Part shown: piece after piece, positions 5,710-28,124 of the stretch
How the letters are laid out: each line of letters begins with the position of its first letter
Position numbering within the stretch: position 1 is the first letter of the stretch
Assembly (NCBI GenBank): GCA_964609075.1
Contig: CAZSQP010000002.1
Location: 8,235-72,234 of the forward strand
Source of the DNA: an uncultured Candidatus Saccharibacteria bacterium
GTDB lineage: Bacteria; Patescibacteriota; Minisyncoccia; Minisyncoccales; GWA2-38-27
Length of the DNA stretch: 64,000 nt
Reading direction: 5' to 3'
The notes under the pieces: generated by a model
Database searches by the model: none
Seen by the model: only the letters and a program-made list of their open reading frames with translations
Told to the model about the DNA's origin: nothing
Program-made: the position numbers and the translations under genes

Positions 5710-5901
5710 ATTATAATTTTATCAGAAAATAAAGATTTTTTAAATAATGGTTTTTGTTATAATAATAGTAGAGTATTTTAAAAATAATAAAGGGAGGAGA
5801 AGGCTTTAATTGATTAGTTTAGAGAAAGCCCAGGTAGGATTCTAGGCTCTTTTTCATGCTTGCCAATCTTAATAATTTAGACTAATATAGAATATAATTG
5901 T

Positions 5902-12103: not shown

Positions 12104-12106
12104 ATT

Positions 12107-13159: not shown

Positions 13160-13455
13160 TAGATAAAAAGGAAGTAAAACGTATAGCAGATCTTGCCAGG
13201 CTGGGATTAGAGGAGAAGGAATTAGGAAAGTTTCAGAAAGATCTTTCTTCTATTTTAGATTATTTTAATGCTTTAGATGAGCTCAAAACAGATGTAGATC
13301 CTACCTTTCATCCTGTGGAAGGATTTTTTAAAAAGAAACTTCAGATTATGAGGGAGGACAAGGCGGATCCAGAGGAGGTTGAAAGAGTTGAGAAGACAAA
13401 GGAACTGTTCCCTGATTCTTCAAAAGGATATCTTAAAGTTAAAAATATATTTTAA
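13156..13455 (+). CDS. gatC: Asp/Glu-tRNA amidotransferase subunit C
   Basis: VKRIADLARLGLEEKE...ILDYFNALDEL, typical GatC. 99 aa. Confidence 0.85.
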   Translation: MIDKKEVKRIADLARLGLEEKELGKFQKDLSSILDYFNALDELKTDVDPTFHPVEGFFKKKLQIMREDKADPEEVERVEKTKELFPDSSKGYLKVKNIF

Positions 13456-13457
13456 AA

Positions 13458-14162
13458 ATGAGAAAATCTTTTACATTAATAGAACTTTTAGTAGTAATAG
13501 CTATTATAGGGTTGTTGTCCAGTATTGTTTTGGTAGCTATCAAAGGGGCCAAAGAAAGAGCTGAACTGGGGAGAGCGAAACAGTTCAGCAGCAATATCAA
13601 GAATGCCCTGGGTGCTTATCCTTTAGGAGAGTGGAGCTTTGACGGAGATTTTAAAGATTCAAGCGGTGTCGGACCTAATTTTAATTGTACCTGTTGTAGT
13701 TTTTCTGACGAAGGAGTGTTTGGAGGCGCTGTAGATCTGGGTGATAATGGGGATTGTGAAATGCTAAGTGGTGTAGTTAAAGTTCCTGATAATGGAAATG
13801 TTACAATAGAGCTTTGGATAAAGCTGACGGAAAGTTGTTCTATTACTCCGATTGTCTATTGGGACGGTATTTTAGAATGGAGTTATAATGGTGGAAATAT
13901 GGGGGTAACAATGCATATAATGGACAATGGTACTCCAACTGGGTGTTCTCCCATTAATTCAGAGTTCTCTTTCAAATTGGACAAATGGACTCATCTTGCT
14001 CTAACTTATAACGGAAGCGAAACAAAATTATTTGTCAATGGAGAACTTGAAGAGTCCAGTAGTAGTTGCTCCGGAAAGTTGAGACCTGGGGAAAACACTC
14101 TTCGCGTAGGGCAGGGTTTGAAAGGTTTAATTGACGGATTAAGAATTTACGGAGATTCTTAA
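13458..14162 (+). CDS. Type IV pilin-like (prepilin N-terminal motif) protein with LamG/concanavalin-like domain
   Basis: N-terminus MRKS-FTLIELLVVIAIIGLL (class III signal/methylation motif, Ser at -1). LamG-like strands ELWIKL and WTHLALTYNGSETKLFVNGEL. Confidence 0.8.
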   Translation: MRKSFTLIELLVVIAIIGLLSSIVLVAIKGAKERAELGRAKQFSSNIKNALGAYPLGEWSFDGDFKDSSGVGPNFNCTCCSFSDEGVFGGAVDLGDNGDCEMLSGVVKVPDNGNVTIELWIKLTESCSITPIVYWDGILEWSYNGGNMGVTMHIMDNGTPTGCSPINSEFSFKLDKWTHLALTYNGSETKLFVNGELEESSSSCSGKLRPGENTLRVGQGLKGLIDGLRIYGDS

Positions 14163-14207
14163 TTTTGCGCGAGTAAAAATCTTTATATAAAGGGGAGAAA
14201 GTAATTT

Positions 14208-15617
14208 ATGAATCATAGAGGGCTTACTATCTACGAAATCCACAAGGGACTAATTAATAAAAAGTTTTCTGCAAGAGAGCTTGCTTTGTCTTTTTCAAGT
14301 AGAATCAAGAAAAAAGATAAAGATATATCAGCTTTTATTACAACAACAGAAGACCTAGCTTTATCTCAGGCTAAAAAAGTGGATGAGTTGATTTCTTCTG
14401 GAAAAGAGGTTCCTCTTTTAGCTGGTGTTCCCATGGCAGTAAAAGACAATATTTTGGTTGAAGGGGTTAAAGCTACAGCAGGTTCTAAGATTCTAGAGAA
14501 CTATATTTCTCCCTATAATGCTACAGTTATGGATAAACTGCTTAGTCTAGGGGCTGTTGTTCTGGGAAAGACAAATATGGATGAATTCGGTATGGGAGCT
14601 TCTACTGAAAACTCTGCCTTTTTTCCTACTAAGAATCCCCATGATTTAGAAATGGTTCCAGGAGGCAGTTCCGGAGGCTCTGCTGCGGCTGTAGCTTCAG
14701 GTATGGCGGTTTATGCTCTAGGATCTGATACAGGGGGGTCTGTAAGGCAACCTGCTTCTTTTTGCGGGGTAACGGGTTTAAGACCTACTTACGGAGCTGT
14801 TTCTAGATATGGCTTGATAGCTTTTGCTTCCTCTTTGGACCAAATAGGTCCTATTGCCAAGACAGCAGAAGATGCAGCTCTTGTTTTTAAAGAATTAACC
14901 GGAAAGGATAAGATGGATTCTACTAGTATTGATTTTTCTTGGAAGAAGGATGTTAAAGTTGATATTAAAAAGATTAGGATTGGAGTTCCTAAAGAATACT
15001 TTGTTAAGGGAATGGATGGAGAAGTAGAGAAAGTAGTAAAAGAAGCTGTTAAAAGATACGAGAAGATGGGAGCTGAGATAAAAGAGATAAGTCTGCCTCA
15101 TACTAAGTATGCTGTTCCTACTTATTATTTAATTAATACTTCTGAAGCTTCATCTAACTTAGCAAGGTATGATGGCATGAGATACGGTCTTTCAGAAAAG
15201 GAAGATAGCTTGCTTGATGTCTATAAAAAGAGTAAAGAGAAAGGTTTTGGCTCTGAGGTTAAAAGAAGGATTATGCTTGGAGCCTATGCTTTGTCTGCTG
15301 GCTATTATGACGCTTTCTATTTAAAGTCAGAAAAAGTGAGGACTTTGATTATAGAGGATTTTAATAAAGCTTTTGAAGAAGTAGACGTTGTTTTATCTCC
15401 CACATCTCCTACTCTTCCTTTTAAAATAGGGGAGAAGATTACAGACCCTGTTTCTATGTATTTATGCGATGTTTTTACAGCTCCTGCAGCCTTAGTGGGT
15501 CTTCCAGCAGTTTCTGTGCCGGGTGGTTTTGCAGGCAAGCTTCCCGTGGGCTTTCAATTGATAGGCCAACCCTTTGAAGATTATAAAATTCTAAAAATAG
15601 GAGAGTTTTTTCAATGA
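14208..15617 (+). CDS. gatA: Asp/Glu-tRNA amidotransferase subunit A
   Basis: Amidase signature GGSSGGSAAAVA..GSDTGGSVRQPASFCG. 469 aa. Confidence 0.95.
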   Translation: MNHRGLTIYEIHKGLINKKFSARELALSFSSRIKKKDKDISAFITTTEDLALSQAKKVDELISSGKEVPLLAGVPMAVKDNILVEGVKATAGSKILENYISPYNATVMDKLLSLGAVVLGKTNMDEFGMGASTENSAFFPTKNPHDLEMVPGGSSGGSAAAVASGMAVYALGSDTGGSVRQPASFCGVTGLRPTYGAVSRYGLIAFASSLDQIGPIAKTAEDAALVFKELTGKDKMDSTSIDFSWKKDVKVDIKKIRIGVPKEYFVKGMDGEVEKVVKEAVKRYEKMGAEIKEISLPHTKYAVPTYYLINTSEASSNLARYDGMRYGLSEKEDSLLDVYKKSKEKGFGSEVKRRIMLGAYALSAGYYDAFYLKSEKVRTLIIEDFNKAFEEVDVVLSPTSPTLPFKIGEKITDPVSMYLCDVFTAPAALVGLPAVSVPGGFAGKLPVGFQLIGQPFEDYKILKIGEFFQ

Positions 15618-16123
15618 ATTCTTTTTGGCAATTTATTTTAAACCCGGAGAATTATACTTTTTATAAGGTAATCAGATTTATCTTTATAGCTGTAGGCCTT
15701 TATCTCTTCGCCTGGATTTTATTCCTTTTACTAAAAAACAGCTGGCTTAGGTATAGGTATTTTGAAGACTATACAGAAGCCCTGTCTTATAAGCCTTTTG
15801 AGAGGAAGGAAATAGGGAAAAGATGGGATAATGTTTTAAAACATTTAGATTCTGGAAAAGAATCTGAGTTTAAAATGGCTTTAATTGATGCAGATAATAT
15901 TCTCTGGGAGGTTTTTCAAAAGATGGGGTATAAAGAGGAAACAATAGGAGATATTCTAGAGAATATAGAAGAAGGGGTTGTTCCCAAGTTGGATGAGATA
16001 AAAGAAGCTCACAGAATTAGAAACAAAGTAGTTCATGATCCAGATTACAGCTTAGACAGGGAAGAAGCAGAGAAGACCTTAAAAGTTTACGAGGAGACTT
16101 TAAGAAATCTGGAAGCTATTTAA
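15614..16123 (+). CDS. Membrane-anchored protein with C-terminal DUF4145/HEPN-like Rx4H motif, function unknown
   Basis: One TM helix (FIFIAVGLYLFAWILFLLL). The C-terminal helical domain contains AHRIRNKVVHD (R-x4-H). ATGA overlap with gatA. Confidence 0.5.
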   Translation: MNSFWQFILNPENYTFYKVIRFIFIAVGLYLFAWILFLLLKNSWLRYRYFEDYTEALSYKPFERKEIGKRWDNVLKHLDSGKESEFKMALIDADNILWEVFQKMGYKEETIGDILENIEEGVVPKLDEIKEAHRIRNKVVHDPDYSLDREEAEKTLKVYEETLRNLEAI

Positions 16124-16145
16124 TTAAAAATTCTCTTGAAATAAA

Positions 16146-16174
16146 GAAAATCCCGGAAGGGATTTCTTTTATTT
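16146..16174. terminator. Hairpin terminator after the 15614-16123 gene; also the left copy of a short direct repeat
   Basis: gaaaatccc-ggaa-gggatttc stem-loop followed by ttttattt. The 3' part (gggatttcttttatttgcg, 16159-16177) recurs at 24261-24278. Confidence 0.65.
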
Positions 16175-16183
16175 GCGAGTTTA

Positions 16184-16393
16184 TACAACGAAGTTAGAAT
16201 CTTTTTTATTGAAAATCTTTGACGATATTTTGTCCGCCGCCACAGGCAGCAGGCAGGAATAAAACTGAAAAATCGGCTCGGGTGCAAAAAATTTACTTTA
16301 GGGTGTGCGGAAAAAGAAAATTTTTTGCAGTCTTATTAGTTAAGCAAAAAAAATTGGGGCGAGACTGCAAAAATTAAAAATTGAAAATTAGAG
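16184..16393 (+). repeat. Left arm of a ~210-bp imperfect inverted repeat bracketing the biosynthetic island
   Basis: Hand alignment to the reverse complement of 23934-24141. Outer 16 nt match 15/16 (tacaacgaagttagaa), a central block matches 21/25 (tgaaaaatcggctcgggtgcaaaaa) and the inner 30 nt match 29/30 (actgcaaaaattaaaaattgaaaattagag). The stretch between these blocks has diverged. Confidence 0.85.
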
Positions 16394-16403
16394 ATGAAAT
16401 GGC

Positions 16404-16432
16404 TTGCGTTTTTTATAGGTATATGGTATAAG
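16404..16432 (+). promoter_or_regulatory. Candidate promoter for the island operon
   Basis: ttgcgt, a 17-nt spacer, then tgg-tataag (extended -10 style), about 40 nt upstream of the first island gene. Confidence 0.35.
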
Positions 16433-16472
16433 AAAATATAAATTTGCGTTTGGTGAGAAAACGAATAAAACA

Positions 16473-17543
16473 ATGGAAAAATGGCAAAATCAGTTAAAAA
16501 TGGGAATATCCTCAGTAGATAAATTAAGGGCTGCTTTTGAACGGGCTGGTATTAGAAAATCTGCTAATTTTTATCGGGAATTAGAAAAAGTTGTTAAATC
16601 GTATCCGATTTTTATTTCTCCCCACATTTTGAAACAATGTTTAAAATCAAAATCAATATATAAACAATTTATACCAGATAAAAAAGAATTAATTAATTTG
16701 AGAGGAGATAGTGATCCACTTAATGAAGACGACATAAAAGCAACAGATAAGTTGATCCATATGTATGCGGATAGGGTTTTGCTTCTAGTAACCGATATGT
16801 GTTTCAGCTCTTGCCGTTTTTGTACAAGAAAACGCATCAAGAAGTCTTGCGAGAGGATAACTTTAAAGCAGCTGGATGACGCCTGCAAATATATTGCTGA
16901 AAATAAGCAGATAAAAGATGTAATAATTTCAGGTGGCGATCCATTAACAATAGAAGATTCGGGTTTAAAAACAATTCTCGAAAGAATAAAAAAGATAAAA
17001 AGCGTAGAAGTTGTAAGAATAGGGACGAGAGCACCAGTTTCATGTCCCGAGAGAATTACCGATAATTTGGTTAAGTTGCTTAAAAAATTTAGTCCTTTGT
17101 ATATTAATATCCATTTAAACCATCCAGATGAATTTAGCCCGGCGACTGTTAGAGCTTTAAGGAAATTATCTATCGGCGGGATTATATTAGGTAGTCAATC
17201 AGTATTGCTGAAAGGAATTAACGATAGTAGTAAAACCATCAGAAAATTATTATATAAATGCTTGCAGAACGGTGTCAGGCCGTATTATCTTTATCAGTGC
17301 GACGAGGTTTTTGGAACAGAACATTTTTGGACAGATTATCAAAAAATGTTCGAGATAGCTCAAGATCTTATTGGTAATGTAAGTGGATTGGCAATACCTA
17401 ATTTTGTATTTGATTGCAAAGGTGGTTGTGGCAAAGTAAGAGTAATTCCGGAATTTTATAAACACAAAAACGAAAAAAGCATAACTTTTAAAACATTTAA
17501 GAATAAATTATATATCTATAGAAATTTGAATAATAAAAGATAG
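16473..17543 (+). CDS. KamA/EpmB-family radical-SAM amino acid 2,3-aminomutase (lysine 2,3-aminomutase-like)
   Basis: CFSSCRFCTRK (CxxxCxxC), VIISGGDPL, VRIGTRAPV, NIHLNHPDE, SQSVLLKGIND, RPYYLYQCD and GTEHF. This is the KamA family motif set. It is a short form (356 aa), so substrate specificity cannot be assigned. Confidence 0.88.
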   Translation: MEKWQNQLKMGISSVDKLRAAFERAGIRKSANFYRELEKVVKSYPIFISPHILKQCLKSKSIYKQFIPDKKELINLRGDSDPLNEDDIKATDKLIHMYADRVLLLVTDMCFSSCRFCTRKRIKKSCERITLKQLDDACKYIAENKQIKDVIISGGDPLTIEDSGLKTILERIKKIKSVEVVRIGTRAPVSCPERITDNLVKLLKKFSPLYINIHLNHPDEFSPATVRALRKLSIGGIILGSQSVLLKGINDSSKTIRKLLYKCLQNGVRPYYLYQCDEVFGTEHFWTDYQKMFEIAQDLIGNVSGLAIPNFVFDCKGGCGKVRVIPEFYKHKNEKSITFKTFKNKLYIYRNLNNKR

Positions 17544-17550
17544 GTTATCT

Positions 17551-18522
17551 ATGATTTATTCAAAAATATTAGACAAACTAGGCGATACTCCGATGGTTAA
17601 GATTGAACCGAAGGGTTTGGATAATATTAATTTATATGTAAAGTTGGAAGGATATAATCCTATGGGAAGTGTAAAAGATAGGGCGGCACTGTATATGCTT
17701 AAAAAAGGTATGGATTTGGGAGAAATCAATAGAGACACGGTTGTAATAGAATCGTCTTCCGGAAATCTCGGTATTGCGCTTTCTGCATATTGCAAGGATT
17801 TTGGGTTAAAATTTTATTGTGTTGTTGATCCACATATATCTTCGATTAATGAATATATTATAAAAACATTAAGTACCAAAATGATAAAAGTTACCGAACC
17901 AGATAAAAATGGAGGATATTTATTGAATAGGATAAGAAAGGTTCAAGAACTATTAAAAAAAATTCCGAATTCTTACTGGATAAATCAATATAGAAATCCT
18001 TATAATCCTGAGGCTTATAAAGAAACGTTAGGAAAAGAAATATGTGAAGAATTAAATAATATTGATTATATTTTTCTTGGAGTAAGTTCTGGAGGAACTA
18101 TTACTGGTTTGTCACAAAAAATTAAAAAGGTATTTCCCAAAGCAAAGGTTGTAGCGGTTGACATTATAGGTTCTGTAATATTCGGAGATGCTCCTAAAAA
18201 AAGATATATACCAGGGATAGGATCCAGTATCATACCCACCGTTTTAAAAGATGCAAAAATAGATGAAGTTGTAACTGTCAACGAGGTTTCTACAATAAAA
18301 ATGTGCCACGAATTGCTGAAAAATCATAATTTATTTGTTGGGGGCTCTTCTGGATCAGTATTCTCCGCTGTCAAAAGATATTTCAAGAATAAAAAACTTA
18401 AGAAAAGACCCACTGTCGTAGTTGTGTTTGCTGATAAGGGGGACAGGTATATTGACACGGTATATAATAAAAGCTGGTGTGACAGTTTTTTGCAGAAGTA
18501 TTCTGGAATAGAACAAATATAA
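17551..18522 (+). CDS. SbnA-like PLP-dependent enzyme (2,3-diaminopropionate biosynthesis, cysteine-synthase fold)
   Basis: GDTPMVKI, LEGYNPMGSVKDRAA (PLP Lys), SSGNLG, GGYLLNRI, WINQYRNPYNP and GVSSGGTITG. Directly followed by an SbnB-like gene. Confidence 0.82.
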   Translation: MIYSKILDKLGDTPMVKIEPKGLDNINLYVKLEGYNPMGSVKDRAALYMLKKGMDLGEINRDTVVIESSSGNLGIALSAYCKDFGLKFYCVVDPHISSINEYIIKTLSTKMIKVTEPDKNGGYLLNRIRKVQELLKKIPNSYWINQYRNPYNPEAYKETLGKEICEELNNIDYIFLGVSSGGTITGLSQKIKKVFPKAKVVAVDIIGSVIFGDAPKKRYIPGIGSSIIPTVLKDAKIDEVVTVNEVSTIKMCHELLKNHNLFVGGSSGSVFSAVKRYFKNKKLKKRPTVVVVFADKGDRYIDTVYNKSWCDSFLQKYSGIEQI

Positions 18523-18525
18523 CCA

Positions 18526-19494
18526 ATGATTTATTTAAACGAGGAAAATTTAAAAAAGATTGGAATTGATTGGAACGAAACCATTGCTACAATAGAGGAT
18601 GCAGTGAGGTGTTTGGATAAAAAAGATTTTTCTCAACCTATTAAACCATATTTAAGGTATAAAAATTTAGAGAACAGGATTATTGCCATGCCGGCGTATA
18701 TCGGCGGGAAATTCAACACGGCCGGAATAAAGTGGATTGCCAGCTTTCCCGGAAATATTGCAAAAGGCTTGCCAAGAGCTCATAGTGTGGTTGTATTAAA
18801 CAAAGCAGAAACCGGAGAACCTATGGCTATAATAAATACTTCGTTCTTAAGTATAATAAGAACAACTTCGGTAAGCGGGCTGATAATTAAATATTATAAC
18901 GAGATCAGAAAAGCAAAAGAGTTTAATTTAGGAATAATAGGATTCGGTCCCATCGGTCAGTATCATTTTAAAATGGCCATGGATTTATTTGGGAATAAAA
19001 TAAAAAAAATTTTCTTGTATGATATAAGATCGATTAATAAAAATAATATAGATAAAAAGTATATAAGCAAAGTTGAGATAAGCGACAAATGGGAAGAGGC
19101 TTACCTTAATTCTGATATAGTTATTACTTGTACAGTATCAAAGGAAAGATATATCGATAAAAAACCTAAAGAAGGATCTCTTCAGCTCAACGTTTCTTTG
19201 AGAGATTATAAAATAGAGACTTTCGAATATTTTAAGAACGCGATTATCGTTGACGATTGGGATGAGATTTGCAGGGAAAACACAGATATAGAACTTATGC
19301 ATAAAGAAAAAGGTTTAAAAAAAGATAATGTAAGAGATATCGCAGATGTTGTGTGTAGAAATTATTTTGAAAAATTAGAGGAAAAAGAAACAATAATGTT
19401 TAACCCTATGGGCATGGGAGTGTTTGATATAGCAATAGCCAAGTATTATTGCGGTAAATCCGAAGAGAAGGGAATCGGGAAGAATATTAAATAA
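18526..19494 (+). CDS. SbnB-like NAD-dependent dehydrogenase (ornithine cyclodeaminase/mu-crystallin fold)
   Basis: GIKWIASFPGN, LSIIRTTSVSG and the Rossmann motif GIIGFGPIGQ. Paired with the SbnA-like gene across a 3-nt gap. Confidence 0.8.
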   Translation: MIYLNEENLKKIGIDWNETIATIEDAVRCLDKKDFSQPIKPYLRYKNLENRIIAMPAYIGGKFNTAGIKWIASFPGNIAKGLPRAHSVVVLNKAETGEPMAIINTSFLSIIRTTSVSGLIIKYYNEIRKAKEFNLGIIGFGPIGQYHFKMAMDLFGNKIKKIFLYDIRSINKNNIDKKYISKVEISDKWEEAYLNSDIVITCTVSKERYIDKKPKEGSLQLNVSLRDYKIETFEYFKNAIIVDDWDEICRENTDIELMHKEKGLKKDNVRDIADVVCRNYFEKLEEKETIMFNPMGMGVFDIAIAKYYCGKSEEKGIGKNIK

Positions 19495-19569
19495 TTTTAA
19501 AATCTACCCAGTAGATTGTTCATTTAAAAATCGTTTAAACCGAAAACTCAGTCAGAAGGAGACATAGCC

Positions 19570-20583
19570 ATGAAAAAGATACTTGTGCTGTACAATCTGG
19601 CAGAACATTTGGATAAGGGAGTTCCAACTGATTTAGTTTGTGAACAGGAAATAACAATTATAGTACCACTGGTTGTAAAGATCCTTTCTAAAAGGGGCTA
19701 CGCAGTTGAGGCCCTAAAGGCAGATTTGAACTTGTGGGAAGAATTGAAAAGGAGACGAGGCAAAGTTGACATGGTGCTCAATCTTGCAGAAGCCTTTGGT
19801 GGTGGAAACGCAAACGAGCCATTGGTTCCTGCTATGCTTGAGGGATTGGGGATGCCGTTCACTGGGGCTTCATTGAGCAACATGACTTTCACTCTTGATA
19901 AAGAGAAGACAAAACTGGTCTTGGTTTCGTATGGCGTTCCTGTTGCTCCACATGTTCTTTTCAGGACTGGCAAAGAGCAACTGAACGACTTGGGTTTTCC
20001 TTTGATAGTCAAGCCCGTGAGGGAAGAGGCCAGTATCGGCATTTACCAGGATTGTGTCGTGGGCAACGAAGCTGACTTACGCAAGAAGGTTCTGTATTCT
20101 TTGGAGAAATATCGACAGCCGATAATGGCAGAGAGGTTTATCCAGGGGAGAGAGATCTCGGTCGGCGTGATTGGCAATCCTTCTAATCTGCATGTTTTTC
20201 CTCCGTTGGAATTCCTTTTCGAAGAAGCAGGGTCTGAACAGGAAAAAATCAGGTCTTATAAATACAAATGGGGAGGAAAGAAAGAACAGATGGTTCGCGC
20301 AGAACTGTCTAATAAAGTGATTGGGCAGCTGGGCGAATACAGTAAGATCTGTTTTGAGGCGACTGATTGCCGCGACTACGCAAGGATGGACTATCGGCTG
20401 GACCCGGAGAACAGGATTTATCTTCTTGAGGTTAACTATAATCCGGGTATCGGGCCGAATGATCATGGTTTAAATAATACGCTGACGATGATGGCGAGCT
20501 TTGAAGGATATTCCTTCGGAGATTTAATCGAAAGGATTCTTATCACAGCGATGGATCGATGCGGATTAATCGTCAGTGGGTAA
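19570..20583 (+). CDS. ATP-grasp ligase, D-Ala-D-Ala-ligase-like family
   Basis: Ddl-like layout: GMPFTGAS, DKEKTKLVL..GVPVAPH, PLIVKPVREEASIGI, AERFIQGREISVGV, ARMDYRL and LLEVNYNPG. The gene is visibly richer in G+C than its neighbours. Confidence 0.8.
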   Translation: MKKILVLYNLAEHLDKGVPTDLVCEQEITIIVPLVVKILSKRGYAVEALKADLNLWEELKRRRGKVDMVLNLAEAFGGGNANEPLVPAMLEGLGMPFTGASLSNMTFTLDKEKTKLVLVSYGVPVAPHVLFRTGKEQLNDLGFPLIVKPVREEASIGIYQDCVVGNEADLRKKVLYSLEKYRQPIMAERFIQGREISVGVIGNPSNLHVFPPLEFLFEEAGSEQEKIRSYKYKWGGKKEQMVRAELSNKVIGQLGEYSKICFEATDCRDYARMDYRLDPENRIYLLEVNYNPGIGPNDHGLNNTLTMMASFEGYSFGDLIERILITAMDRCGLIVSG

Positions 20584-20595
20584 CGTTTAGCATCT

Positions 20596-20629
20596 GGGGG
20601 CGTTTGGGTAGTGCGCCCCCTTATTTTTT
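20596..20629 (+). terminator. Rho-independent terminator after the Ddl-like gene (inside the island)
   Basis: gggggcg / cgccccc stem with an 11-nt loop, followed by ttatttttt. Confidence 0.7.
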
Positions 20630-20644
20630 GATATTATAAATCAT

Positions 20645-21991
20645 ATGAATTACAAAATTATAATTATAGCCAATATTGCAGAAGTATTTGAAGATGCTTT
20701 GAGTAAAGTTACGCCTAGACAGGAAAAAATTAGAAAAATTCAAATAGAGCATAATCTATGCGACAGAACATTATTGTGGGAAGGCGATGATAAAATTATC
20801 ATAACTCCGTTTCCGATATCCTCTCTGCTTTTTAAAAATAATGTAACGGCATTAGGTTTTAGAAATTGTTTAAACTTATCTCCGAAAAAGGTTAATATTG
20901 GTCTGTCTGAAGCGATAATGAATGATAAATTACTATTGAAAAAAATATCTGATATAATTAAAGATAAGCCGGGTATAAGAATTTCGCCGTATGCTGTTAC
21001 GCCAGCTTTTATAAATTTTATAGAATTTTTAAAAAGAAAAAACCTTAATTTTAAGGTAGAAGAAAGACCATATAAAAATTCAGACTGGACAGTTAAATTT
21101 TTAGATTCAAAGATAGGATCGAGATTAGAGATAGGTAAGATAAAGAATGAAGACATTAATATTCCAAAGAGCATCGTTTGTAGGAGTAAAAATGAAGCGA
21201 TATCTGTTGCAAGATGGTTTTATAACCAGAATATTTCCTGTGTGGTTAAAGCAAATTTCAGCGAAGGTGGCTGGGGGACATTGATGATAAAAAACAAGGA
21301 CAACAAATCTTGGAATGAAACATTATCGAAAATAAACAAAGAATTTAATAATGACTGTATTTGGGACGATGGATTAATCATAGTTGAAGAATACATTAAA
21401 GCGAAAAGGGGTATATCCAGCGGGTGTCCGTCGTCTGAGTTGTTTTTATCGGAAAGAGGTCCGAAAATTACTTATGTGTGCGACCAAATTGTAGCTGAAG
21501 CAGGAAATTTTTTGGGAATTACTCTGGGGAAAGGAGCTCTGGATAAAAATATTGAAAATAAAATAAATAGAGCGTCGATTCTTGTTGGAAGGAGATTTTG
21601 GGAGCTGGGATATAGGGGGTTTTTTGATATAGATTTCGTATTATCTAAAAAGAATAGAACCCTGTATATTATCGAGACTAACATGCGTCGAACGGGTGGA
21701 ACTCATATTTTTGATGTGGCAAAGTCCATTTTCGGAAACGATTGGAAAAACAAAGCATTTATATTGTCACAAGACTCCTTTTGTTACGGTAAAAAATTAC
21801 TATCCGAAAGAGCTATTTTAGAGAAAATAAAAGATATTTTATTTCCCATAGATAACAAAAAAAGAGGCGTTATAATATCTATAATAAACAAATGGAAGCC
21901 TACGATTGGCTTTATTATTATAGAAGAGTCATCAGAAAAAGCTTTGGAAATTTATTCAAAGATGAAAAATTTATTAAACGTTAAAAATTAA
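20645..21991 (+). CDS. Second ATP-grasp family ligase (larger, divergent)
   Basis: ISCVVKANFSEGGWG, IIVEEYI, FFDIDFVL and IIETNMRRTGGTH (ExN-type Mg/ATP site) fit an ATP-grasp C-domain. The N-terminal ~170 aa has no assignment. Confidence 0.62.
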   Translation: MNYKIIIIANIAEVFEDALSKVTPRQEKIRKIQIEHNLCDRTLLWEGDDKIIITPFPISSLLFKNNVTALGFRNCLNLSPKKVNIGLSEAIMNDKLLLKKISDIIKDKPGIRISPYAVTPAFINFIEFLKRKNLNFKVEERPYKNSDWTVKFLDSKIGSRLEIGKIKNEDINIPKSIVCRSKNEAISVARWFYNQNISCVVKANFSEGGWGTLMIKNKDNKSWNETLSKINKEFNNDCIWDDGLIIVEEYIKAKRGISSGCPSSELFLSERGPKITYVCDQIVAEAGNFLGITLGKGALDKNIENKINRASILVGRRFWELGYRGFFDIDFVLSKKNRTLYIIETNMRRTGGTHIFDVAKSIFGNDWKNKAFILSQDSFCYGKKLLSERAILEKIKDILFPIDNKKRGVIISIINKWKPTIGFIIIEESSEKALEIYSKMKNLLNVKN

Positions 21992-22002
21992 TAACCAAGA
22001 AC

Positions 22003-22509
22003 ATGAATAAAATAATGTTAAAAATAAAGCCATTTCAAGAAAAATTGAATTGTAGCTATTGTGGACCAGCAACTTTGAAGATTTTGCTAAATTATTACGG
22101 AATAGAAAAATCAGAAAGAGAATTGGCTAATATGTCGGGGTGGGACAAGGATCTGGGAATAGATGATAAAGGAATTAGACGAGCAGCAGAATCACTCGGT
22201 TTTAAAGTAGAAATAAAAAATAATAGTAGCTATAAAGATATTCAGAAATGGCTAGATAAAGGCATTCCAGTTATTGTTAACTGGTTCACGCGAGGTAGAA
22301 ACGATTATCCAGAGTCAGAAACAGCTGACGGCCATTATTCAGTTGTAGCAGGCTTAGATAATAGATTTATTTATCTCCAAGATCCTGAGATAGGAAAAAT
22401 GAGAAAAATTAAAAGATATGATTTTATGAGAGTGTGGTTCGATTTTAAAGGCGATTATATAAGGCCAAACGAGTTAATTATAAGACAGATTATTGTGATA
22501 CATAAATAA
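22003..22509 (+). CDS. Stand-alone C39-like papain-fold cysteine peptidase
   Basis: FQEKLNCSYCGPATLKILLNYYG (Q...CG nucleophile context), DGHYSVVAG (His) and YLQDPE (Asp), matching the C39 catalytic order. No ABC transporter is attached. Confidence 0.62.
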   Translation: MNKIMLKIKPFQEKLNCSYCGPATLKILLNYYGIEKSERELANMSGWDKDLGIDDKGIRRAAESLGFKVEIKNNSSYKDIQKWLDKGIPVIVNWFTRGRNDYPESETADGHYSVVAGLDNRFIYLQDPEIGKMRKIKRYDFMRVWFDFKGDYIRPNELIIRQIIVIHK

Positions 22510-22510
22510 T

Positions 22511-23884
22511 ATGTTTGAAGATTATCATTTTTCTGAAGACGCAAAGATAATTACTAAGAAAATACCTGGAGAGAAATCTTTGGAGCTTTTAACTGAACAA
22601 GAGAAATTAGAAAGCAAAAATCGATCATATCCTCGAGATATACCAATTACTTTTGAGTCCGCGAAGGGTGCGACCGTTAAGGACGTCGACGGGAATATTT
22701 TTATAGACTTCCTCTCCGGTTGCGGTGTTTTGAATTTAGGCCACAATAATCCAGAAATTTTAAAAGACATAAAAGAACTGCCCGATGCCGTAATGCATGC
22801 ATTGGATTTTCCTACAAAGATAAAAATTGATTTCATGAAAGAGCTTCTTTCATCGCTGCCTAAAAAACTACAAGGCAAATATAAAATTAGTTTTGGAGGT
22901 CCAACAGGATCGGATGCAGTAGAAGCCGCAATCAAATTAGCAAGAATAAATACTGGCAGGCATACTATCCTTTCCTTTCAAGGAAGTTATCATGGCATGA
23001 CGATGGGCGCTTTGAGCGTTACAAGCAGTCTCCGTCACCGGGAGGAAGTTAACCCACTTATTCCCGGGGTACATTTTATGCCTTATTGCAGTTGTTATAG
23101 GTGTCCAATGGATATGGATCAAAAAAAATGCAATTTCGAATGCGTTCATTTTTTGAAGAATGCTTTAGAAAATCCTTATTCTGGTATAGACAAACCAGCG
23201 GCGATAATCATTGAACCAATTCAGGGAGAAGGCGGGGTATATATACCAAGAGATGGTTGGTTAAAAAAAGTTGTCGATCTTGCAAGAAAAAATGGAGTGG
23301 TTGTTATATTTGATGAAGTTCAAGCCGGATTCTATAGAACTGGTAAGCTTTTTTCTTTTGAACATACTAATACAGTCCCCGATATTATAACAATGTCTAA
23401 GGGCATTGGAGGAATTGGATTACCCTTGTCTTTAATACTTTTAAGAAAAGAGTTGGATATATGGGGGCCGGGAACCCACGTAGGAACATTTAGGGGAAAT
23501 CAGCTTGGAATGGCAGCTGGCTTGTCTGCAATAAGATTTGTTAAAAGAACGAATATCGAAGATTATGTTTCTAAGACGGAAAAAATATTCCTGAAAGAAT
23601 TAAATAATATACAGAAAAAATCAAAGTTCATTGGAGATATAAGGGGTAAGGGAATGATGTTTGGTATAGAATATGTAAAAGACAAAAATACTAAAAAACC
23701 ATTTTCTGAATTAACAAAAAAGGTAAGGAAACTTTGTTACGAAAACGGCTTATTGGTTGAGATTGGAGGGTATTATGATAACGTCGTAAGACTTTTGCCG
23801 CCGCTAATAATAAGTGAAAAAATTGCGAAAAACGGATTAAGCATATTTAGAAAGGCAAACATTTCAGCAAAAATAAAGTCTTAA
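22511..23884 (+). CDS. Class-III aminotransferase, diaminobutyrate-2-oxoglutarate transaminase (EctB/Dat) type
   Basis: SYPRDIPITFESAKGATVKDVDGN..LNLGHNNPE, FGGPTGSDAVE, IFDEVQAGFYRTG and TMSKGIGG (Schiff-base Lys). Confidence 0.83.
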   Translation: MFEDYHFSEDAKIITKKIPGEKSLELLTEQEKLESKNRSYPRDIPITFESAKGATVKDVDGNIFIDFLSGCGVLNLGHNNPEILKDIKELPDAVMHALDFPTKIKIDFMKELLSSLPKKLQGKYKISFGGPTGSDAVEAAIKLARINTGRHTILSFQGSYHGMTMGALSVTSSLRHREEVNPLIPGVHFMPYCSCYRCPMDMDQKKCNFECVHFLKNALENPYSGIDKPAAIIIEPIQGEGGVYIPRDGWLKKVVDLARKNGVVVIFDEVQAGFYRTGKLFSFEHTNTVPDIITMSKGIGGIGLPLSLILLRKELDIWGPGTHVGTFRGNQLGMAAGLSAIRFVKRTNIEDYVSKTEKIFLKELNNIQKKSKFIGDIRGKGMMFGIEYVKDKNTKKPFSELTKKVRKLCYENGLLVEIGGYYDNVVRLLPPLIISEKIAKNGLSIFRKANISAKIKS

Positions 23885-23933
23885 AATAAATTACACGCCT
23901 AAAACCTAAGTAAAATCGGGTTTTTAGCTTCAA

Positions 23934-24141
23934 CTCTAATTTTCAATATTTAATTTTTGCAGTTTTGCCTTAATTTTTTCTGGTTAACCAGTAAGACTAA
24001 AAAAATTTCTTTTTGCTCACACTTAAAAGAATTTTTGCGTCCGAACCGATTTTTCGATTTTGCTTTTGCCCCACCCTACTGAAGCAAAGCGGAGCAATTT
24101 TGTCAGGAGTTTTAAATAAAATAGGTTCTGACTTCGTTGTA
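23934..24141 (-). repeat. Right arm of the ~210-bp imperfect inverted repeat bracketing the island
   Basis: Its reverse complement aligns to 16184-16393 (see left arm). It contains a perfect 12-bp palindrome ctggttaaccag (23981-23992) that is absent from the left arm. Confidence 0.85.
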
Positions 24142-24149
24142 AAGACGTA

Positions 24150-24167
24150 GAGACGACCGGACTCGAA
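24150..24167 (-). other. Orphan copy of the tRNA-Asp 3' end (T-loop to acceptor), att-site-like remnant
   Basis: gacgaccggactcgaa (24152-24167) is identical over 16 nt to 24281-24296 inside tRNA-Asp, in the same orientation. The flanks do not fold into a tRNA. Confidence 0.7.
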
Positions 24168-24248
24168 GGAGCTGTCCGAAGGTATTCCCTCCCTTTGGTC
24201 GGAATTCGGGAAGTCCGATTCTCGCCAGATCGCTTACCCGAAACAAAA

Positions 24249-24276
24249 AAGACCCCAAGGGGGTTTTCTTTATTTG
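24249..24276. terminator. Bidirectional hairpin terminator downstream of the minus-strand tRNA operon; right copy of the short direct repeat
   Basis: aagacccc-aag-ggggtttt stem-loop flanked by A-run and T-run. gggttttctttatttgcg (24261-24278) resembles 16159-16177. Confidence 0.6.
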
Positions 24277-24350
24277 CGGGGACGACCGGACTCGAACCGG
24301 CAACCTCATCCGTGACAAGGATGTGATCTAGCCAATTGATCTACGTCCCC
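24277..24350 (-). tRNA. tRNA-Asp (GTC)
   Basis: Hand-folded cloverleaf: acceptor GGGGACG/CGTCCCC, anticodon arm CATCC-TTGTCAC-GGATG, T-arm GCCGG-TTCGAGT-CCGGT. 74 nt, CCA not encoded. Confidence 0.92.
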
Positions 24351-24460: not shown

Positions 24461-24531
24461 TTGCGGGGACAGGAGTTGCACCTGTGTCTCGAGGTTATGG
24501 GCCTCGCGAGATACTACTTCTCCACCCCGCA
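24461..24531 (-). tRNA. Initiator-like tRNA (CAT) with non-canonical loops
   Basis: The 5' part TGCGGGGTGGAGAAG resembles bacterial tRNA-fMet (CGCGGGGTGGAGCAG). Anticodon arm CGAGG-CCCATAA-CCTCG, T-arm ACAGG-TGCAACT-CCTGT, acceptor TGCGGGG/CCCCGCA. Confidence 0.7.
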
Positions 24532-24572
24532 GGGATATATTAACTTATTTTTTTTATAAAATCAACCCTCTG

Positions 24573-24601
24573 TTGACATAGATAATATCTATTAGTAGGA
24601 T
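24573..24601 (+). promoter_or_regulatory. Candidate sigma70-type promoter upstream of the pyrD-like operon
   Basis: TTGACA (24573-24578), a 17-nt spacer, then taggat followed by aaaat. Lies between the divergent tRNA operon and the 24638 gene. Confidence 0.4.
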
Positions 24602-24637
24602 AAAATATCTTTGGTTCATTGAAAAAAGGAGAAGAAA

Positions 24638-25537
24638 ATGATAGAGCTGTCAAACAAGCATAGATTTGAGTATATGGTAGCTTCTGGAGCCCTAGCCTTT
24701 GATGGAGAAGGATGGTTCTGGGAAAAGCCTTTAAAATGGCTGGGATTGCTGGATCCTACTCTTTTCACTGTTGTTATTAAAACATTGACCTTCAAGCCGA
24801 GAGAAGGAAATCTTAGGTGGTACAATCCTTTCAGGTGTATTCGTCTAATCAGAAAAGGATTGAGAGTGGAAGGCACGCTTAATTCGGTGGGTCTTACTAA
24901 TAAAGGCTACCTTTGGTGGTGCCATGAAGTAGGTCCTAATGTGTCAAAGAAAATGTCCCTAGTAGGTTCTATTTTCTGTGAAGATCCGGAAGAAGTTCTC
25001 GAAATGTGTTTAGCTTTAAATCCTTTTGACTTTGTCGCTATAGAGCTCAATGCTTCATGTCCCAATACAGAGAGTGGGGTTTTAGAGAATACAGAAAAAA
25101 TTGTAGATTGCTGTAAAAAAGCAAAAGATTATTCAAGGTTTCCTTTAATTCTCAAGCTTTCTGTGATTCATGACGTAGAAAGGATCATTCCTGAAGTTGA
25201 GGGTATAATAGAAGCTGTTTCCATAAACAGTGTTCCTTGGAACATTGTTTATCCTCATAAAAAGAGTCCTTTGGCTCATTTGGGTGGCGGAGGAGTATCT
25301 GGAAAAGTGGCTTCTCCTTACACCTGGGACTTTGTAGAAATGTTGGCTTATAAGTTTTCTGTCCCGGTGATAGGTCCCAGCGTTTGGGACTTTAAGGATA
25401 TTCAAGGATTAAGGGACTTGGGAGCTGAGGCTATAAGCTTTGGTTCAGTCTTTCTCCCTTATCCTTGGCGTCCTACACTTTTTGTGCGTCGGGATATAAG
25501 AAGGCTCGCAAGAACAGAGAAAGGGGAAAGGATATGA
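24638..25537 (+). CDS. pyrD: Dihydroorotate dehydrogenase family protein (class-1-like)
   Basis: SVGLTNKG, ELNASCPN (class-1 catalytic Cys motif), GGGGVSGK and a TIM-barrel-like pattern. RBS aaaggag upstream. Confidence 0.78.
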   Translation: MIELSNKHRFEYMVASGALAFDGEGWFWEKPLKWLGLLDPTLFTVVIKTLTFKPREGNLRWYNPFRCIRLIRKGLRVEGTLNSVGLTNKGYLWWCHEVGPNVSKKMSLVGSIFCEDPEEVLEMCLALNPFDFVAIELNASCPNTESGVLENTEKIVDCCKKAKDYSRFPLILKLSVIHDVERIIPEVEGIIEAVSINSVPWNIVYPHKKSPLAHLGGGGVSGKVASPYTWDFVEMLAYKFSVPVIGPSVWDFKDIQGLRDLGAEAISFGSVFLPYPWRPTLFVRRDIRRLARTEKGERI

Positions 25538-26301
25538 GAACTGGCAACCTAAAACCCGAAGAAAGGATTATTGTTGCTCTAGATGTAGACACTATTAAGA
25601 AAGCCTTTTTGTTGGTTCATCAGTTAAATGGTCAAGTTGGGTATTTCAAGATTGGCCTTCAGTTCATTTACTCTATGATAGCTTCTTTGATCTCTCCGGT
25701 CTCCATTAACGAGGCTGTTTATAATCTTAGTGAACTAAGAAAGCTTTTTACTGCTCTTTCTGATCAAGATTTTTGGGATACCAAACTAGCTGATATTCCA
25801 AACACCATAGAGGGTGCCTCGCTTGCTCTTTCTGGGATGGGAGTGAAGATGTTCAATATCCACGCTTCTATGGGGAAAGAAGCTATTAGAAGAGCTGTAG
25901 AAAGCAAGGGTCATTCTCAAGTCTTTGGAGTTACGGTTTTAACGTCTCTTGACAAAGATGAATGTAAGTCTATTTTCGGAGGGAATCCTGGTTCGAAGGT
26001 TCTTCAATTCTCCGATACGCTTCTTGACGAAGGAGTAGACGGAATTATCTGTTCGCCCCAGGAAGCTCAATTGCTTAGAAGCAGAGAAAGATACGACGGT
26101 CTTGTTACTGCTACTCCGGGTGTGCGTCCCGAATGGGCTCAGAAAGGGGATCAAAAGAGAATTATGACTCCTGCAGAAGCTATCAGAGCAGGAGCTGACC
26201 TTCTTGTTATAGGTCGTCCTATTCGTGAACCGCCAAAGGAGATCGGCAGTCCGGCAGATGCTGCCAGAATGATTGCCGAAGAAATCGCCTCAGTATGCTG
26301 A
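25534..26301 (+). CDS. pyrF: Orotidine 5'-phosphate decarboxylase
   Basis: IIVALDVD, GYFKIGLQF, DTKLADIPNT and LVIGRPI. Start chosen at the ATGA overlap with the pyrD-like stop (MRTGNLKPEE); the ORF-track start at 25465 is an upstream extension. Confidence 0.85.
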   Translation: MRTGNLKPEERIIVALDVDTIKKAFLLVHQLNGQVGYFKIGLQFIYSMIASLISPVSINEAVYNLSELRKLFTALSDQDFWDTKLADIPNTIEGASLALSGMGVKMFNIHASMGKEAIRRAVESKGHSQVFGVTVLTSLDKDECKSIFGGNPGSKVLQFSDTLLDEGVDGIICSPQEAQLLRSRERYDGLVTATPGVRPEWAQKGDQKRIMTPAEAIRAGADLLVIGRPIREPPKEIGSPADAARMIAEEIASVC

Positions 26302-26314
26302 AAGGAGGAAGAAA

Positions 26315-27025
26315 ATGCGACAGGGGCTTGCTGATAAGATCATAGCTTTTAGCTTTGATCCTTTGAGGATTTCAGATGATCCTTTTACCCAAGATGAAGT
26401 TCTTAAGATTTTCAGAGAATATGGAGCAGTATGGCTTCATGACGGGGATCCGGAAAAGCCTCATGCTGAGCTTACTTCGGGTAAGCACAGCAATGGTTAT
26501 TTCAATTGTCCTAGTGTTCTGTGTGATACTAAAATCAGTACTCTTTTTGCTCATCAGCTTCTTTATATGCTTGGAGGAAAGGTAACAAGAGGCGTTGAAT
26601 GGGTAATAGGTTCACCCTACGCTGCAATTACTTTTTCTCACGAGGTAGCAAGAATTCTGGGAGCAAAGCATGGATTTCCGAGAAAAGCTGCTGGTAAGAA
26701 GATGGTCTGGAAAGACTGGCAAATTCCAAAAGGTTCTAAAGTCCTTCAAATAGAAGAACTTATAACCACCCTCGGAACAACGATGAATGTCCGAGAGTCA
26801 ATATTCGAGGGTAACGAAGAAGAGGTCGTTTTCCAACCTACCATAGGCGCCATTGTTCACCGACCGCCAGAACTTCCTGTTTGCTATGAAGATGAGATTC
26901 GTGTCGTCTCTCTTATTGAAACCCCGGTTTGGGCGGTAGATCCTGAGGAGTGTCCTCTTTGTGCTAAAGGATCTGAAGCTCTAAGGCCCAGAGGGAAGGG
27001 CAACTGGGAAAAATTGACAGCCTAA
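26315..27025 (+). CDS. Phosphoribosyltransferase, orotate-PRTase-like (atypical)
   Basis: ELTSGKHSNGYFN (PyrE-like substrate loop) and VLQIEELITTLGTT (PRPP-binding motif). Start at the ATG after RBS aggagg. The C-terminal CPLC is unusual. Confidence 0.6.
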   Translation: MRQGLADKIIAFSFDPLRISDDPFTQDEVLKIFREYGAVWLHDGDPEKPHAELTSGKHSNGYFNCPSVLCDTKISTLFAHQLLYMLGGKVTRGVEWVIGSPYAAITFSHEVARILGAKHGFPRKAAGKKMVWKDWQIPKGSKVLQIEELITTLGTTMNVRESIFEGNEEEVVFQPTIGAIVHRPPELPVCYEDEIRVVSLIETPVWAVDPEECPLCAKGSEALRPRGKGNWEKLTA

Positions 27026-27033
27026 AAAGTATC

Positions 27034-27065
27034 AGCCACCGACTTTAAAACGGTGGCTTTTTATT
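27034..27065 (+). terminator. Rho-independent terminator after the PRTase-like gene
   Basis: agccaccg / cggtggct 8-bp stem followed by ttttatt. Confidence 0.75.
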
Positions 27066-27126
27066 ACAAGTTATCCCCAAATATATAGTTGATTTTAAGC
27101 TTTTTTTAAGGTAAAATAGGTATAAT

Positions 27127-28122
27127 ATGGAGTTAAGTAATATCGAGAAAAAAGCGTTAGAAAAGATAGAAAAAGCCTCTGATTTAAAGGGGCTTAATGA
27201 GGTATATAAGGAATATTTAGGAAAGAAAGGGGAGCTGGCCAAAGTCTTCCGTTCTTTAAAAGACTCTTCTGATAAAAAGAAGGTTGGCAAGAAAGCAAAT
27301 AAAGTAAAGAAATTTCTAGAGAAAAAGATTGAATCAAAAAAGAGGCTACTTTTATCAAGAAAAAAAGAAAAGAAGAAATTAGATGTTAGCATTCCAGGCC
27401 AAAAGCCTCCAACAGGTCATTTACATCCTTTAACCTTAGTCAAAAGAAAGATAGAAGAGATATTCCAGAGTATGGGCTTTAGTGTCATAGAGGGTCCTGA
27501 AGCTGAAACAGAATTTTATAATTTTGATGCTTTAAATATTCCTAAAGATCATCCGGCTCGTGACGCCTGGGACACTTTTTATTTAAAAAACGGAAAAGTT
27601 TTAAGGACTCATACTTCTCCTGTTCAGATAAGGTATATGGAAAAGAACTATCCTCCCTTGAGAATTATAGTGCCGGGGAGAATATATAGACACGAAGCTA
27701 CAGACGCCTCCCATGATTTTCAGTTTTATCAGGTTGAAGGTTTAATGGTAGGAAAAGATGTTTCAGCAGCTAACTTCAGAGCTATTATTAAGGAATTTTT
27801 AAGTAGATTTTTTGAGAAGGAAGTGAAAGTTCGTTTAAGACCAAGCTTCTTTCCTTTTACAGAGCCTTCTTTTGAGGTTGATATAAGCTGTTTGGTCTGT
27901 GAGGGAAAAGGATGCAGTGTTTGTTCCCAGACAGGATGGGTAGAGCTTTTGGGAGCCGGCATGGTTCACCCAAATGTTTTGAAGGCTTCTGGCATTAATC
28001 CTGAAAACTGGCAAGGTTTTGCTTTTGGCATAGGCATGGATAGGCTGGCTATGATGAAATACAAGATTGATGATGTAAGGTTGTTTAGAAGTTCCGATTT
28101 AAGATTTATAGGGCAATTTTAA
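27127..28122 (+). CDS. pheS: Phenylalanyl-tRNA synthetase alpha subunit
   Basis: HPLTLV, DHPARD, LRTHTSPVQIR, FRAIIKEF, FFPFTEPS and GFAFGIGMDRLAM. Confidence 0.95.
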   Translation: MELSNIEKKALEKIEKASDLKGLNEVYKEYLGKKGELAKVFRSLKDSSDKKKVGKKANKVKKFLEKKIESKKRLLLSRKKEKKKLDVSIPGQKPPTGHLHPLTLVKRKIEEIFQSMGFSVIEGPEAETEFYNFDALNIPKDHPARDAWDTFYLKNGKVLRTHTSPVQIRYMEKNYPPLRIIVPGRIYRHEATDASHDFQFYQVEGLMVGKDVSAANFRAIIKEFLSRFFEKEVKVRLRPSFFPFTEPSFEVDISCLVCEGKGCSVCSQTGWVELLGAGMVHPNVLKASGINPENWQGFAFGIGMDRLAMMKYKIDDVRLFRSSDLRFIGQF

Positions 28123-28124
28123 TT

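Follow-up and report, generated by a model that had tools for sequence, protein, structure and literature searches.

Furuta, Abe and Kobayashi (2010; PMC2853133) described restriction-modification units that carry imperfect inverted repeats unique to the insert and encode no transposase, as well as insertions with target duplications longer than 30 bp. Here we analyze a comparable structure, a seven-gene biosynthetic cluster enclosed by imperfect inverted repeats (the arms), in a 64-kb stretch of contig CAZSQP010000002.1 (the window) from an uncultured bacterium that, judging by its protein matches, belongs to the Patescibacteria, also known as the Candidate Phyla Radiation (CPR). All coordinates are positions in the window, unless a locus name (L001, L097, etc.) is given. 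Like the published units, the cluster is compact cargo between imperfect inverted repeats, which occur only in the insert and are lacking from a genome whose site is empty; no transposase or integrase lies inside, and a direct repeat of target sequence of more than 30 bp surrounds the insertion. In keeping with class b3 of that study, the arms could not be aligned to the 20 kb examined of locus L001, which holds the empty site, and they have no other copy in the 64-kb window. There are also differences: the arms are 215 bp long and 76% identical, compared to 26-65 bp and nearly perfect in the published units; no clean 8-bp duplication is present; the cargo is biosynthetic rather than a restriction-modification system; the host is an uncultured member of the Patescibacteria/CPR; and the flanking direct repeat is a palindromic terminator that matches in direct and inverted orientation alike. 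The structure is a recombinase-less, inverted-repeat-bounded cargo islet at a tRNA flank, of a kind already described, and stands out mainly through its long ends and its CPR host. In our reading, the arms are terminal inverted repeats, and what they delimit is a transposon-like, non-autonomous cargo unit that is mobilized in trans or has now decayed, and give this reading a probability of about one half.

Three other kinds of element share part of this architecture. Islands that target tRNA genes through a tyrosine integrase are similar in their insertion at the 3' side of a tRNA, with a copy of the tRNA 3' end (16/16 nt here) nearby, in their imperfect direct repeat that includes the last tRNA bases, and in their strain-variable cargo. 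In contrast to such islands, the present locus has no integrase, its tRNA copy lies between the tRNA and the unit rather than at the far island end, and it is bounded by 215-bp inverted repeats instead of direct repeats. No tyrosine-integrase gene was found at the island end, and all seven genes between the arms are biosynthetic. Among transposons, the ends of Tn7 or Mu extend over approximately 100-200 bp and contain several binding sites, and the terminal repeats of Tn552 measure 116 bp. Long-ended, non-autonomous DNA transposons resemble our unit in their long ends, in the extreme termini being best conserved, and in the cargo between; as in such elements, terminal inverted repeats are present at both ends of the insert and a relative (L001) has an empty site. 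They differ from it in that the termini here are TAC...GTA instead of 5'-TG...CA-3', with neither a demonstrated repeated transposase-binding motif nor a 5-bp duplication, and we know of no cognate transposase for these arm termini. Finally, composites formed by pairs of miniature inverted-repeat transposable elements (MITEs) or terminal inverted-repeat miniature elements (TIMEs) mobilize the genes between them. These share the arrangement of two non-coding inverted elements of ~200 bp around cargo, and mobilization in trans. The arms differ in that neither has its own terminal inverted repeats or target duplication, and in that solo copies were found neither in the window nor among 176 related loci (those fetched for homologous clusters are L081-L176; 119 ATP-grasp homologues were found).

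The arms and their parts are as follows:
16178-16398, plus strand: left arm (core 16184-16398; 16178-16183 is a weakly matching outer extension), from repeat search, local alignment and blastn
TACAACGAAGTTAGAA, plus strand: left-arm outer terminus, from the arm alignments
16283-16329, plus strand: left-arm palindrome TGCAAAAAATTT..AAATTTTTTGCA (DNA fold z = -4.8)
23929-24147, minus strand: right arm (core 23929-24141; 24142-24147, AAGACG, is also found in L097), from the arm alignments and the L097 comparison

An initial annotation of this DNA had aligned the arms by hand as imperfect inverted repeats of ~210 bp, and computed alignments confirm them. Comparison of 16100-16480 with the reverse complement of 23880-24280 returned a single local alignment (16184-16398 with 24141-23929), whose Smith-Waterman score of 162 contrasts with 20.1 ± 2.3 for 300 shuffles (maximum 29). 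By blastn, the arms share 74.9% identity over 219 columns (E 1.5e-32); in a global alignment, 169 of 222 columns are identical (~76%), with 16 gap columns scattered along the length. A repeat search recovered the pair as four collinear pieces (I1-I4) and extended it 5 nt outward, to 16179/24146. The two conserved blocks quoted in the annotation were exact and correctly placed: the outer 16-mer TACAACGAAGT[T/C]AGAA (16184-16199 and 24126-24141) and the inner 30-mer (29/30 between arms; 16364-16393 and 23934-23963) each occur twice in the window, where 0-0.08 occurrences are expected by chance. The further claim that conservation is concentrated at the repeat ends held in part. Both ends are better conserved than the middle (p = 0.0006, for ends that were defined post hoc), but strong divergence is confined to columns ~41-80 (23/40 identical, with most of the indels), identity elsewhere is 75-90%, and the 29/30 inner block is not significant by itself (permutation p = 0.08).

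Comparison with L001 reveals that the arms and cluster are absent as a block from the closest relative found. This locus, from a metagenome-assembled genome labelled Candidatus Saccharibacteria, provides the best match to the window's GatA (84%), followed by Patescibacteria or Parcubacteria bins. On either side of the cluster, it aligns collinearly with the window (14206-16125 with L001 8856-10766; 24260-24381 with 10793-10907; 24495-28129 with 11357-14980). In L001, ~40 nt with a single terminator-like hairpin come after the stop codon of an open reading frame (ORF) of 169 amino acids (aa), and an opposite-strand tRNA-Asp gene, orthologous to that of the window (L001 10806-10879), follows directly with its 3' end. 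Since only this hairpin separates ORF and tRNA-Asp in L001, the extra ~8.1 kb of the window (16178-24278) constitute an indel. The order in the window is hairpin 1, left arm, cluster, right arm, a 97-nt piece, hairpin 2 and tRNA-Asp:
16139-16170, no strand assigned: hairpin 1, terminator-like and bidirectional, between the 169-aa ORF and the left arm (two-strand terminator scan)
16144-16177, plus strand: direct repeat copy 1 (hairpin plus TTTATTTGCG), imperfect, 34 nt, 74%, ending 1 nt before the left end of the unit
24148-24244, minus strand: 97-nt extra piece, absent from the L001 empty site
24245-24278, plus strand: direct repeat copy 2, containing hairpin 2 (24245-24275) as well as the final 3 nt of tRNA-Asp (repeat search, terminator scan)
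24276-24350, minus strand: tRNA-Asp (GTC), called by ARAGORN and Rfam

The left arm begins 1-7 nt from the insertion boundary. The L001 empty site lacks the two arms jointly, and nothing similar to either occurs in the part of L001 examined. The ORF-side flank of hairpin 1, TTCTCTTGAAATAAA, aligns with the empty site and is host DNA.

A second genome places the outer end of the right arm. In L097 (BBPF01008198, ATP-grasp 77% identical), AAAATAGGTTCTAACTTCGTCGTAAAGACG occurs ~330 nt past the aminotransferase gene, in the same inverted orientation as in the right arm. L097 3621-3650 matches window 24118-24147 at 28/30 positions and the homology stops after AAAGACG; beyond it the L097 flank has no similarity to the window, which carries a tRNA-Asp-like piece there. 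The outer terminus is thus found conserved at the boundary in a second context, and on this comparison the right boundary of the shared unit lies at 24147/24148; by symmetry, its left boundary is 16178, one base past the direct repeat. The outermost ~30 nt of the right arm are the only arm sequence kept in this second genome. The interior of the L097 arm is longer, more GC-rich and gives no reliable alignment with the window arms; by eye, it retains the order CCGCCGCCA, GAAAAAT, and the GCAAAAAAT...ATTTTTTGC palindrome. Outside its conserved terminus, L097 has a promoter-like stretch and a gene start with a frame rich in hydrophobic residues (read by eye), and a perfect DnaA-box-like TGTGGATAA ~20 nt away (within L097 3610-3680).

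The inner edges of the arms coincide with the edges of homology between sister clusters. The relevant features are:
16399-16472, plus strand: cluster promoter region (TTGCGT at 16404-16409, 17-nt spacer, TGgTATAAG at 16424-16432), outside the arm, aligning with the L081 upstream region
16473-23884, plus strand: seven cargo genes (Pfam, NCBIfam)
23905-23925, plus strand: cluster terminator-like motif CCTAAGTAAAATCGGGTTTTT, the same motif standing 3' of the last gene in L081, L082, L083 and L102

In L081 (ATP-grasp 73%), the sequence 5' of the first gene aligns with window 16399-16468, sharing the promoter-like GCTTGC-N17-TGgTATAAG; this homology begins at 16399, one base past the end of the left arm. 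At the other side, the motif TAAAATCGGGTTTTT after the last gene of L081, L082, L083 and L102 is common with window 23905-23925 and ends ~3 bases before the right arm. Given the shared promoter from 16399 and the shared terminator to ~23925, the conserved cassette comprises 16399-23928, with the arms abutting it exactly. These alignments show sharp inner boundaries and arms that are not part of the conserved cluster.

We searched the predicted proteins for an enzyme that might act on the arms. No recombinase, integrase or transposase domain was detected in the 47 distinct window proteins scanned (7 between the arms and 40 others), in agreement, as far as tested, with the statement in the initial annotation that no such gene lies between or beside the arms. 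The other 40 proteins were housekeeping or had no match, and core genome makes up the remainder of the window (RpoA, MurA-like, two MreB, ProRS, GatA, GatB, PheST, ThrRS, DnaE, MiaA/B, TrmD and others).

On the tRNA side of the insertion, the 97-nt piece finishes with 21 nt (24167 down to 24147) that reproduce the tRNA-Asp 3' end; within them TTCGAGTCCGGTCGTC at 24167-24152 matches tRNA-Asp 24296-24281 at 16/16 positions (z = 9.2). This copy (24152-24167) lies on the tRNA-proximal side of the unit, and the distal end, ...TTTATTTGCG, shares only 3 nt with the tRNA. When 24147 down to 16178 is removed on the minus strand, what is left is TTCGAGTCCGGTCGTC-T|CGCAAATAAAAG followed by hairpin 1, approximately a tRNA-Asp 3' end plus terminator. 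The region looks layered, and the unit may have entered an already duplicated tRNA 3' fragment. In addition, 24191-24158 resembles the first 34 nt of L093 (z = 8.1), an RNA-gene-like 3' end ~290 nt 5' of a sister cluster; it is called by neither ARAGORN nor Rfam, and permissive Rfam thresholds gave no credible family for the L093 start.

Another reading, offered as a possibility in the initial annotation, is that the 7.5-kb segment inverts by recombination between the arms and so acts as a switch. The inverted-repeat geometry would suit a switch, as would the tRNA-like fragment, which lies on the opposite side of the cluster and in the opposite sense relative to it compared to the similar fragment upstream in L093. 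However, no invertase is among the 47 proteins scanned, and arms that are 76% identical with a longest perfect match of 15 nt fall below the requirement for RecA-dependent exchange, for which ~23-27 bp are usually needed. Furthermore, the cluster has its own promoter and terminator, so flipping it would switch nothing obvious, and the L097 cluster has the same orientation as that of the window. We consider inversion highly improbable.

Whether a short target duplication accompanies the insertion was also raised in the initial annotation, which saw no clear one. None abuts the arms, where the flanks AGTTTA and AAGACG match each other weakly and in inverted, not direct, orientation, but an imperfect 34-nt direct repeat surrounds the whole insertion. 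Its two copies (74%) share an identical TTTATTTGCG. Hairpins 1 and 2 align with a score of 28, compared to a maximum of 25 for any other 40-nt window stretch, and are more alike than either is to the L001 hairpin. The pair also matches in inverted orientation (AAATAAAGAAAA[T/C]CCC, 15/16), because the sequence is palindromic. The 34-nt repeat may have arisen as a long target duplication, or the inverted repeat may extend outward as far as this.

Searches for further arm copies were negative throughout. There is no third copy in the 64-kb window by blastn and motif count, and no further full copy in the 176 related loci. Distant blastn of the left arm plus hairpin against phage and plasmid collections produced no match, and neither did exact scans for the inner 27-mer in metagenome or viral contigs or for the outer plus middle block and the 24-nt outer terminus in viral contigs. 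A test of a virus-borne cluster, the search for a relative of the ATP-grasp protein in IMG/VR, also found none. It is accordingly unlikely that each arm is a separate copy of a dispersed repeat, similar to a MITE or a repetitive extragenic palindromic (REP) element, that landed on either side by chance and is uninformative on how the cluster moved. Such an origin would fit the exact placement of the arms against the promoter and terminator of the cassette, as might result from intergenic insertions that occurred independently, and their patchy presence among sister clusters; it conflicts with the failure of all these searches, with the joint absence of both arms at the empty site, and with the structure of the arms themselves. 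The sole inverted repeat inside an arm is the central palindrome (16283-16329), and the flanks of each arm mismatch; lacking terminal inverted repeats and target duplications of their own, the arms are not MITEs. The suggestion that the locus is a decayed composite or MITE-flanked cargo element therefore survives only in its general form: the empty site, the coincidence of arm edges with sister-homology edges and the right outer terminus kept in L097 favor a cargo element, whereas the composite version does not fit arms of this kind.

In a possible alternative, clearly less probable than a transposon-like unit, a non-coding module that serves the island was duplicated in inverted orientation to give the arms, which would not be recombination substrates, and the cluster arrived otherwise, for example by homologous or illegitimate recombination at the tRNA flank. 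The module might keep transcription of the gatA operon (left) and of the tRNA operon (right) from reading through into the cluster, or bind a regulator. Consistent with this, host transcription converges on the arms, which point inward against it, each with a terminator-like hairpin ahead of it; the A/T-rich inner block of the left arm occupies about -45 to -75 relative to the conserved promoter of the cluster; and the sister cluster in L125 is inserted without an inverted repeat. The A6/T6 palindrome of the left arm, which folds more stably than its shuffles (z = -4.8), recurs in L097 (z = -2.6; right arm z = -1.5). On the other hand, the strongest cross-genome conservation is in the outermost ~30 nt at the insertion boundary, which would be unexpected for an internal regulatory site, and most sister clusters have no arms. 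Terminator and promoter scans found no intrinsic terminator or promoter inside the arms. The GC-rich hairpins of the diverged arm middle, considered as conserved structure, were rejected, given that shuffled sequences are equally stable (z = -0.9, -1.6). Searches of both arms against Rfam 15 at permissive thresholds reached 25 bits at best, compared to gathering thresholds of 50-70, and all families were implausible. No dif/Xer-type sites were spotted by eye, a reading made with no formal test.

A related proposal, that the arms are copies of a repeated regulatory module of which the right one fires antisense into the cluster, is not supported, given the lack of further copies in the window and the 176 loci, the position of the conserved promoter outside the left arm, and the promoter scan, which detected nothing promoter-like within the right arm or next to it. 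In particular, the scan turned up no sigma-70 promoter directed from the right arm into the cluster. The one promoter-like site close to an arm spans the outer junction on the left and has no conserved counterpart in the right arm: it is a sigma-70-like site at 16173-16200 (TTGCGA, 16-nt spacer, TAGAAT) with its -10 hexamer within the conserved outer terminus, where the right arm reads CAGAAC.

We also considered whether the arms are decayed relics of duplicated coding sequence, such as a gene fragment left by cluster rearrangement. The outer terminus of all three arms (the two of the window and that of L097) reads (L)Y[N/D]EVR in one frame, an exact 16-mer of the terminus, TACGACGAAGTTAGAA, lies within the SbnB/OCD gene of sister cluster L153 (422-437), where it codes for YDEVR, and some cluster variants have SbnB-SbnA inverted after the aminotransferase gene. 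However, when all cluster proteins plus nine OCD homologues were compared to the arms by tblastn, no E below 0.03 was obtained in a tiny database, the ORF lists contain no conserved ORF common to both arms, and the 16 gap columns are scattered along the arm alignment. A coding origin is very unlikely on these data. The OCD protein comparison with the arms was not significant, and we take the L153 match to be coincidence.

In the transposon-like reading that we favor, the unit would span 16178-24147 (7,970 bp, ~7.97 kb), with the promoter-to-terminator cassette (16399-23928) between two non-coding ends of ~215 bp. The outer termini (CGTCTT-TAC[A/G]ACGAAGT[T/C]AGAA...) would be the sites of cutting and joining for a recombinase or transposase encoded elsewhere, which would act on the unit in trans. 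The arm interior, with its A6/T6 palindrome and A-rich tracts, would hold accessory binding sites, and the left inner block may also serve the cluster promoter as an UP-like element. The imperfect 34-nt host-terminator repeat would represent a long target duplication from insertion, or else att-like homology carried by the element. The unit is now probably immobile or decaying, because its arms have diverged by 24% and no clean short target duplication is present.

Several observations weigh against this interpretation, besides the lack of a recombinase gene and of a short duplication abutting the arms. Without a third arm copy in the collections searched, mobility in the form of multiple insertions is unsupported. 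The right boundary relative to the empty site falls 97-130 nt beyond the arm and is not cleanly explained. The polarity of the indel, an insertion here rather than a deletion in L001, is a provisional call from one comparison. The conserved terminus was found at one end only and in one other genome, L097, where a NNNN gap lies 30 nt inside of it; searches with radical SAM and aminotransferase homologues yielded no closer contig of the L097 type with flanks that include the left end. Finally, the window arms are 76% identical to each other, yet the L097 arm interior cannot be aligned to them. The two window arms are thus more alike than the orthologous right arms of two genomes, which requires gene conversion or a younger duplication.

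Homologous clusters are common in CPR contigs, and both their genomic contexts and downstream neighbours vary between genomes. Except for the L097 terminus, no arm-like sequence was found in the sister loci, and none occurs 3' of the cluster in L174-176 (79%). Nor is there a flanking inverted repeat of any kind in the 19 loci whose sequence can be read on either side of the cluster (~16 distinct once duplicate records are discounted), including L101 (aminotransferase 85%). A different kind of boundary is seen in L125 (also L124), where a six-gene homologous cluster is enclosed in a 37-nt imperfect direct repeat (215-251 and 6748-6785, 33/37). This repeat is a duplicated 5' part of the downstream host flavoprotein (CoaBC-like) gene and is close in length to the 34-nt repeat of the window; inverted repeats are absent from L125, and its direct repeats enclose no recombinase gene.

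In a bolder version of the transposon-like reading, which we regard as unlikely, the locus would represent an undescribed, non-autonomous CPR cargo transposon or integrative cassette with long, structured ends of ~215-330 bp and a conserved TAC[A/G]ACGAAGT terminus. Such an element would insert at terminators or tRNA 3' ends with a target duplication of ~34-37 bp, comparable to the 37 nt duplicated around the L125 sister cluster, shuttling a diamino-acid/ATP-grasp cluster between streamlined genomes that have few recognizable mobile-element genes. How the small genomes of CPR/Patescibacteria gain and lose accessory pathways is poorly understood. In the present case, a complete seven-gene cluster can be recognized as a separate insert whose ends are defined and whose site is empty in a sister genome, and the same cassette occurs in many different settings throughout the radiation. 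Should the conserved termini be recombination sites, they would provide a handle for finding the enzyme that moves the cassette; if they are not, the locus is still a well-delimited, recombinase-less islet at a tRNA flank that overturns nothing known.

The sister loci exhibit further variation around the cluster. At least eight contigs from different assemblies (L081-L085, L102, L104, L105, L122) end 100-270 nt 5' of the first cluster gene, which may indicate that, in other populations, the cassette has a repeat or a boundary that varies between strains at its left edge. In L171-L173, a cluster remnant, with just the C39-like peptidase and the aminotransferase (80% identical), adjoins a type I restriction-modification system. 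A non-coding stretch is conserved 3' of the clusters in L086 (~6420-6560), L087, L142 (~2560-2700) and L092 (~5450-5540); it has a T-loop-like motif on the reverse strand (GGATTCGAAC / GGGATTTGAAC) and is directly followed by tRNA-Thr in L092. This stretch may be an unrecognized RNA gene or a tRNA fragment.

The seven cargo genes are co-directional and encode a KamA-family radical SAM aminomutase, SbnA, SbnB, a Ddl-like ligase, a second ATP-grasp ligase, a stand-alone C39-like peptidase and an enzyme of the diaminobutyrate-2-oxoglutarate transaminase family. SbnA (402.9 bits, cut-off 350) and SbnB (329.8 bits, cut-off 326.9) both score above the NCBIfam equivalog cut-offs, and the transaminase scores 456.6 bits against a cut-off of 401.6. 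By this NCBIfam assignment, SbnA and SbnB would synthesize 2,3-diaminopropionate. Some related clusters carry an extra ATP-grasp paralogue between the ATP-grasp and C39 genes (L094 1726-4208; L102 ~5700-8160), in L094 together with an extra radical SAM gene. The gene for the Ddl-like ligase (19570-20583) has a GC content of ~45%, compared to ~32-35% for the region, and its product retains ~78% identity in relatives with 65-73% ATP-grasp identity (L081-L093), above that of the PALP, OCD and ATP-grasp neighbours.

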